Assembly: GCF_045037415.1 (NCBI RefSeq)
Contig: NZ_CP173438.1
Length of the DNA stretch: 64,000 bases
Direction: 5' to 3' (one strand)
Origin: Escherichia coli
GTDB lineage: Bacteria > Pseudomonadota > Gammaproteobacteria > Enterobacterales > Enterobacteriaceae
In this document: positions 27,974-28,122 of the stretch, piece after piece
Numbering within the stretch: the stretch's first letter is position 1
Layout: each line of letters begins with the position of its first letter
Notes under the pieces: model-generated
The model's input: the letters and a program-made list of their open reading frames with translations, nothing else
Database searches by the model: none
Told to the model about the DNA's origin: nothing
Made by a program: the position numbers and the translations under genes

Positions 27974-28122
27974 GGTGATTCCTCGTGATGTTGTGCTTCT
28001 TATTGTTCGGTTCGCGTTTGCGAGATTGAATTCACTATATGACAGGAAATTTATTGCGGAAATTGATATATTCACAACGTCACATTGCAATTTCTGCAAC
28101 GTCAACATTAAGGGCTGCGCCA
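27974..28122. promoter_or_regulatory. Divergent ilvY-ilvC promoter/operator region
   Basis: Intergenic between divergent ilvC and ilvY starts; contains repeated ACGTCA(A)CATT and TTGCAA inverted elements at about 28075-28108. Confidence 0.6.

Follow-up and report, generated by a model that had tools for sequence, protein, structure and literature searches.

The divergent ilvY-ilvC control region of Escherichia coli: location of the IlvY operators and a predicted TTG start codon for ilvY

Background

Divergent, overlapping promoters of ilvY and ilvC, together with the operators O1 and O2, were reportedly described for Escherichia coli K-12 by Wek & Hatfield in 1986/1988 and by Rhee et al. in 1998/1999. 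The ilvYC region has become a prototype both for LysR-type regulation and for divergent promoters that are coupled through supercoiling. The DNase I footprints of Wek & Hatfield (1988), as quoted in PMC5002191, show a tandem pair of 27-bp operators, and an imperfect inverted repeat of 21 bp lies in each. There, O1 is given as ACgTTGCAAaaaTTGCAAtGT, centred at +17 of ilvY, and O2 as aTATatCaatttccGcaATAa, which overlaps the -10 and -35 boxes of ilvY as well as the -35 box of ilvC. PMC6441110 describes operator arms of 9 bp that share the sequence A(T)CATTGCAA; the arms of O1 contain one mismatch and those of O2 six.

The mechanism considered here is that given for ilvYC in PMC6483228, PMC5965847, and PMC7567609. 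IlvY, a LysR-type regulator, is described as binding the adjacent operators O1 and O2 cooperatively. Because O1 is located just downstream of the ilvY transcription start, its occupancy would repress ilvY with or without inducer. O2 is reported to overlap the weak -35 box of ilvC, and acetolactate or acetohydroxybutyrate would bind the preformed IlvY-DNA complex and cause a conformational change at the -35 region of ilvC, through which RNA polymerase would be recruited to the ilvC promoter; in the literature, the inducer-bound complex raises RNA polymerase binding approximately 100-fold. Without inducer, IlvY represses ilvC according to Reg-Seq (PMC7567609). Coupling of the two promoters would result from divergent ilvY transcription, which would send negative supercoils to the ilvC promoter.

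Methods

All positions refer to the window, i.e. the whole 64,000-nt stretch of E. coli DNA that was analysed, numbered from its first base. Loci of related species were obtained from one scan of species-representative genomes, which gave 80 Enterobacteriaceae loci. The spacer alignment consisted of 75 sequences: 73 species loci with a spacer of at most 170 bp, the window, and K-12. Start-codon alleles within E. coli were counted in 5,426 complete genomes using 40-nt queries, each 28-nt seed of which included the first base of the start codon. Repeats were compared with a null of 1000 dinucleotide-preserving shuffles of the 149-bp spacer.

Results and discussion

Identity of the locus and its genes

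A stretch of 601 bases around the spacer was 100% identical to E. coli strain SK1144 in genome comparison, and the same query was matched in 5,425 of the 5,426 complete E. coli genomes. RefSeq annotates the locus in SK1144 as ppiC, ilvC, ilvY, and ilvA. The ilvY-ilvC spacer comprises 149 bp (27974-28122) between minus-strand ilvC and plus-strand ilvY; ilvC starts at an ATG (27973-27971, minus strand) and its product has the N-terminus MANYFNTL. IlvC scored 1030 bits against NCBIfam NF003557 (cut-off 713), while IlvY, a member of the LysR family, scored 510.9 bits against the equivalog NF008722 (cut-off 246) and hence belongs to that family. Model positions 1-292 of 293 in NF008722 align from the TTG codon onward, and the protein translated from this codon contains PF00126 (HTH_1) at residues 3-62 and PF03466 (LysR_substrate) at residues 89-293. 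Divergent ilvY and ilvC genes, with the ilvC start at most 400 nt upstream, were found at all 80 related species loci. Coordinates of the genes and of the putative control elements are summarized in Table 1.

Table 1. Features of the ilvY-ilvC region, in window coordinates, and the basis on which each was assigned
Feature	Position	Strand	Basis
ilvC CDS, ketol-acid reductoisomerase, 491 aa + stop	26498..27973	-	ORF and translation; RefSeq of identical strain SK1144; NCBIfam NF003557
ilvC Shine-Dalgarno GAGGA (on ilvC mRNA), putative	27979..27983	-	Sequence; region conserved
CACAACAUCAC in ilvC leader, perfectly complementary to R1 of GcvB sRNA	27985..27995	-	Duplex prediction; conservation
ilvC transcription start, approximate	28027	-	Published IR1/IR2/IR3 at -65/-43/-34 (PMC5002191); IR1 centre at 28092
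ilvC -10 hexamer TATAGT, putative	28034..28039	-	Sequence and conservation
In-frame ATG, not the ilvY start	28039..28041	+	Overlaps first base of ilvC -10; upstream of ilvY transcription start
IlvY operator O2, 21-bp imperfect inverted repeat, activation site	28051-28071	.	21/21 against published ATATATCAATTTCCGCAATAA, as quoted in PMC5002191
ilvC -35 hexamer TTTCCG, weak, putative; 17-bp spacer, inside O2	28057..28062	-	Sequence; O2/-35 overlap in literature
ilvY extended -10 TGaTATATT, putative hexamer	28064..28072	+	Sequence; O2/ilvY -10 overlap in literature
ilvY transcription start, approximate within ~3 nt	28076..28079	+	'+17' for O1 gives 28076; -10 geometry gives ~28079
IlvY operator O1, 21-bp inverted repeat, high-affinity autorepression site	28082-28102	.	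20/21 against published ACGTTGCAAAAATTGCAATGT, as quoted in PMC5002191
ilvY Shine-Dalgarno AAGGG, 8 nt before start codon	28110..28114	+	Sequence
ilvY CDS from TTG, 296 aa + stop	28123..29013	+	RefSeq; NF008722; Pfam HTH_1; start-codon comparison

[quoted passage not shown] We consider it highly probable (approximately 0.93) that the region is the classical divergent, overlapping ilvY-ilvC promoter/operator region, with O1 and O2 as mapped in Table 1 and ilvY translated from TTG 28123. Everything in this control region is already known or already annotated; only the quantified TTG/GTG polymorphism of the ilvY start codon, along with the absence of ATG alleles from both flank contexts queried, is mildly new.

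Operators and repeated elements

The two operators lie in tandem with their centres 31 bp apart, and the sole mismatch between O1 and its published sequence is at 28094. The core of O1, TTGCA-N5-TGCAA, occupies 28085-28099 and includes a T-N11-A motif at 28086-28098. Within it, TTGCAA is found at 28085-28090, and the second element (28094-28099) reads CTGCAA in the window and TTGCAA in K-12. Because the published O1 maps to 28082-28102, these two elements are half-sites of one and the same operator.

The longer repeats are ACGTCACATT at 28077-28086 and ACGTCAACATT at 28099-28109. Their common ACGTCA forms the outer flank in each of two like-oriented half-sites, CACAACGT and TGCAACGT, which are spaced by 22 bp; read on the ilvC strand, it is TGACGTTG(C/T), the outer portion of the half-site ACGTTGCA. 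One of these half-sites is the right arm of O1, and the other, 22 bp away, is the right arm of the weak site IR2 (28063-77); IR2 and IR1 are sites of the three-site model in PMC5002191. The first copy of ACGTCA(A)CATT spans both the ilvY transcription start and the junction between O2 and O1, and its CATT forms the left arm of O1, whereas the CATT of the second copy belongs to unconserved leader, conservation of that copy ending at ACGT.

When compared with shuffled spacers, the exact 8-nt direct repeat CAACGTCA was matched or beaten in 0.14 of shuffles, and a single perfect 5-N5-5 palindrome in 0.15. A 12-nt inverted repeat linking O2 to O1 (28054-65 and 28088-99, 11/12 positions) and a 21-nt direct repeat (28062-82 and 28084-104, 15/21 positions, 22-bp spacing) were matched in 0.02 and 0.05 of shuffles, respectively. 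The 8-nt repeat and the palindrome alone are thus not beyond chance, and the 12-nt and 21-nt repeats are marginal. Since the statistics within the sequence are at chance level or marginal, the functional case for the repeats is that made by conservation and the published footprints.

Conservation across Enterobacteriaceae

Positions 28042-28102 are nearly invariant among the 75 aligned sequences, most columns (including all of 28060-28072) being identical in 75/75, and 28103-28122 are highly variable. O2 in its entirety is nearly invariant. Position 28094 varies freely (C in 42, A in 16, T in 14, and G in 3 sequences) and, given that it is free to vary among species, the T-to-C substitution in O1 of the window should be harmless. 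At 28084, A and G are found in 37 sequences each, and G gives a perfect O1 palindrome, ACGTTGCA-N5-TGCAACGT.

Two further observations concern the spacer itself. The segment ACAGGAAAT (28042-28050) shows little or no variation among the 75 sequences. It is part of the ilvC promoter spacer, where it borders O2 on the left, and is not explained by the hexamers of either promoter; a bending site or the edge of the IlvY footprint might account for it. In addition, spacers of seven of the 80 species (loci L012, L014, L024, L029, L033, L045, and L080) measure 216-280 bp, i.e. 60-130 bp above the usual ~150 bp, which suggests inserted elements in the control region.

Promoters

The approximate ilvC transcription start is invariant in the 75 aligned sequences and lies 7 nt downstream of the putative ilvC -10 hexamer. 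Positions 1, 2, 5, and 6 of this hexamer are invariant and positions 3 and 4 variable, and the resulting TAnnGT is the pattern expected of a -10 box. The poor -35 hexamer of ilvC fits an activator-dependent promoter. All nine bases of the putative extended -10 of ilvY are invariant in the alignment. An ilvY start at 28076, as derived from the '+17' position of O1, sits nearer to the TATATT hexamer than usual. A simple consensus scan of the region for promoters and terminators gave no hits; no sigma-70 site was called because the -35 box of each promoter is poor. Folding of the ilvY leader RNA gave z +1.1, i.e. no structure signal.

Start codon of ilvY

TTG 28123 is followed by GAT TTA CGC GAT CTG (D L R D L), which gives the peptide DLRDLKTF, and the RefSeq ilvY CDS begins at the base matching this position. 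A start codon was aligned to TTG 28123 in all 80 species, being GTG in 64, ATG in 15, and TTG in one (E. albertii). It is preceded by a Shine-Dalgarno-like purine-rich tetramer at -20 to -4 in 80/80 species and followed by DLRDLK(T/M)FL in 77/80, and in 53/80 an in-frame stop is found in the 21 nt before it. Based on the aligned start codons, the Shine-Dalgarno element, and the lack of conserved coding sequence upstream in these 80 species, ilvY qualifies as a gene with a non-ATG start. Other than 28123 itself, no in-frame ATG, GTG, or TTG occurs between ~28076 and 28122; going downstream, an in-frame ATG is first met at codon 25 of ilvY, within the HTH. No N-terminal peptide or initiating-ribosome footprint for IlvY was found in the literature searched.

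Initiation of ilvY at TTG 28123 is thus a well-supported prediction. It had been proposed in the sequence-only reading and is borne out by RefSeq, the 80-species alignment, position 1 of NF008722, which coincides with the TTG codon, and HTH_1, which begins at residue 3.

Start-codon alleles within E. coli

The TTG allele was found in at least 3,364 of the 5,426 complete E. coli genomes (62%); GTG, the allele of K-12 and O157:H7, was present in at least 1,848 (34%). By these counts TTG is the majority ilvY allele of E. coli, though the reference strain carries GTG. ATG versions of either allele had no match in the two main flank contexts among the 5,426 genomes. Approximately 200 genomes fit neither allele query, probably due to nearby SNPs. 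Overall, ilvY has a non-ATG start in at least 96% of the 5,426 E. coli genomes and in 65/80 Enterobacteriaceae species.

One might speculate, as an unlikely idea, that a weak non-ATG start is kept by selection for low IlvY translation, and that the TTG/AAGGG and GTG/GAGGG combinations could set heritably different IlvY levels; if this were true, ilvC inducibility would differ between E. coli lineages. The control-region allele implies no new biology. As a natural variant, with one O1 base, the leader, and the start codon different from those of K-12, it could nonetheless serve builders of acetolactate-responsive circuits.

An ilvY with about 85% identity is also present in a few plasmid records of E. 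coli. At positions 1-4579 of one of these (locus L085; NZ_CP081708.1, a 57.9-kb plasmid of E. coli AH04), ilvY is found beside a frameshifted ilvC fragment, dhaK, dhaL, and fabV, and the segment looks like a chromosomal capture from another enterobacterium.

GcvB pairing in the ilvC leader

The predicted duplex between the ilvC leader and R1 of K-12 GcvB has an energy of -32.1 kcal/mol, reached in 0.004 of shuffles. Of 73 species, 86% have z below -2 for this predicted pairing, which is thus conserved. The conservation of the CACAACAUCAC pairing agrees with the status of ilvC as a validated GcvB target (PMC9299463).

Alternative readings

The sequence-only reading had taken the ACGTCA(A)CATT and TTGCAA elements within approximately 28075-28108 to be, in themselves, two tandem IlvY operators. 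Of the repeats that it named, ACGTCACATT, ACGTCAACATT, and TTGCAA are present, while the second TTGCAA reads CTGCAA here; the interval does hold a genuine IlvY site, and the two ACGTCA copies are separated by 22 bp, or about two helical turns. The comparison with the published IlvY operators, as quoted in PMC5002191, places O1 (20/21) within this interval but O2 (21/21) to its left, beyond the interval, and the operator map is corrected to that extent. Further evidence against two operators in the interval is that TTGCA-N5-TGCAA is one palindromic dimer site, that the second copy is unconserved past 28102, and that the exact repeat does not exceed chance (0.14 of shuffles), and we regard this arrangement as very unlikely. 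A more credible, if still doubtful, proposal is the three-site 'sliding dimer' variant, put forward from phylogenetic footprinting (PMC5002191), in which O1/IR1 (28085-99) and the O2 core/IR3 (28054-68) are joined by the weak IR2 (28063-77, TTGATATATTCACAA), used with inducer bound, such that the ACGTCA repeat would mark the right flanks of IR2 and IR1. While the 21-nt direct repeat (15/21; 0.05 of shuffles) and the conservation of both CAA(C/T)GT flanks speak for it, IR2 agrees with TTGCA-N5-TGCAA at only 6/10 arm positions, its conservation is equally explained by the overlapping ilvY -10 box and transcription start, and PMC6441110, which reports that multiple activation sites have not been demonstrated for IlvY, places it under the 'different-side binding' model. 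The alignment data are compatible with the three-site model, and conservation driven by the promoters fits them equally well. We retain the two published operators, O1 and O2, as the preferred reading.

With respect to the ilvY leader and start, two further alternatives may be weighed. Translation from ATG 28039 would add 28 residues at the N-terminus, for a protein of 324 aa; no start codon is more efficient than ATG and, as the sequence-only reading correctly noted, this one is in frame 84 nt (28 codons) upstream, with the frame from 28039 to 28123 open in both the window strain and K-12. However, the codon shares a base with the ilvC -10, the first of that box, and is absent from the ilvY mRNA, whose reported start is ~37 nt further downstream. 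Its TG is replaced by CA in 31/75 aligned sequences, the frame leading back to it is closed in 56/80 species (an open in-frame ATG at -84 being present in 13/80 only), the extension has no match to the IlvY or HTH_1 profiles, and RefSeq does not use it. A start at ATG 28039 is largely refuted, and its probability is close to nil; a longest-ORF rule would mis-call ilvY here by 28 codons, and annotation quality is the main relevance of this result. The CA-rich ACGUCA(A)CAUU repeats could, on the other hand, be read as a GcvB pairing site in the ilvY leader, for which a duplex with R1 of -27.3 kcal/mol (0.012 of shuffles) is predicted in the window strain. Such pairing is not conserved, with a median z of -0.8 and z below -2 in only 10% of 73 species, against 86% for the ilvC positive control, and the main text of the GcvB regulon paper (PMC9299463) does not name ilvY among the targets. 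Conserved GcvB pairing to the ilvY leader was rejected on the 10% figure, in an analysis covering R1 only, and a pairing function for the repeats is highly improbable.

Comparison with K-12 and with LysR-type promoters

In K-12 MG1655, the ilvYC spacer is likewise 149 bp, and the gene order ilvA-ilvY-ilvC-ppiC-rep is common to K-12 and the window. The two sequences are identical from the ilvC ATG through 28093, and for this reason the -10 and -35 boxes of ilvC and the -10 box of ilvY are the same in both. O2 is identical at 21/21 positions, whereas O1 differs by one substitution, T in K-12 to C in the window at 28094. This is one of seven differences in 28094-28123, among which are the start codon of ilvY (TTG in the window, GTG in K-12, at the same position) and its Shine-Dalgarno element (AAGGG in the window, GAGGG in K-12). 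IlvY is 296 aa long in the window and 297 aa in K-12, because K-12 has a ~55-bp REP-containing insert at the 3' end of ilvY. In the window, the ilvY stop (29011-13) overlaps the stop of the convergent ilvA (29010-12); the ~55-bp insert is found at this point in K-12 (NC_000913.3 3956876-3956926) and carries the REP-like palindrome GTAGGCCTGATAAGCGAAGCGCTATCAGGCAT, with IlvY ending in ...NHK in K-12 and in ...NH in the window.

The generic LysR-type architecture consists of a recognition site (RBS) near -65 with a T-N11-A motif and an activation site (ABS) overlapping the -35 box, with a regulator gene that is divergent and autorepressed. The ilvYC region resembles this architecture in that the centre of O1, which contains T-N11-A, falls at -65 of ilvC and that of O2 near -34, with O2 overlapping the ilvC -35 box; these positions rest on the ilvC start derived from PMC5002191, with which the conserved TAnnGT -10 box agrees. 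The IlvY half-site is ACRTTGCA, and its spacing is unusually long for the LysR family according to PMC5002191. Unlike that of the generic LysR-type regulator, the affinity of IlvY for DNA is unchanged by inducer (PMC5965847, PMC6441110).
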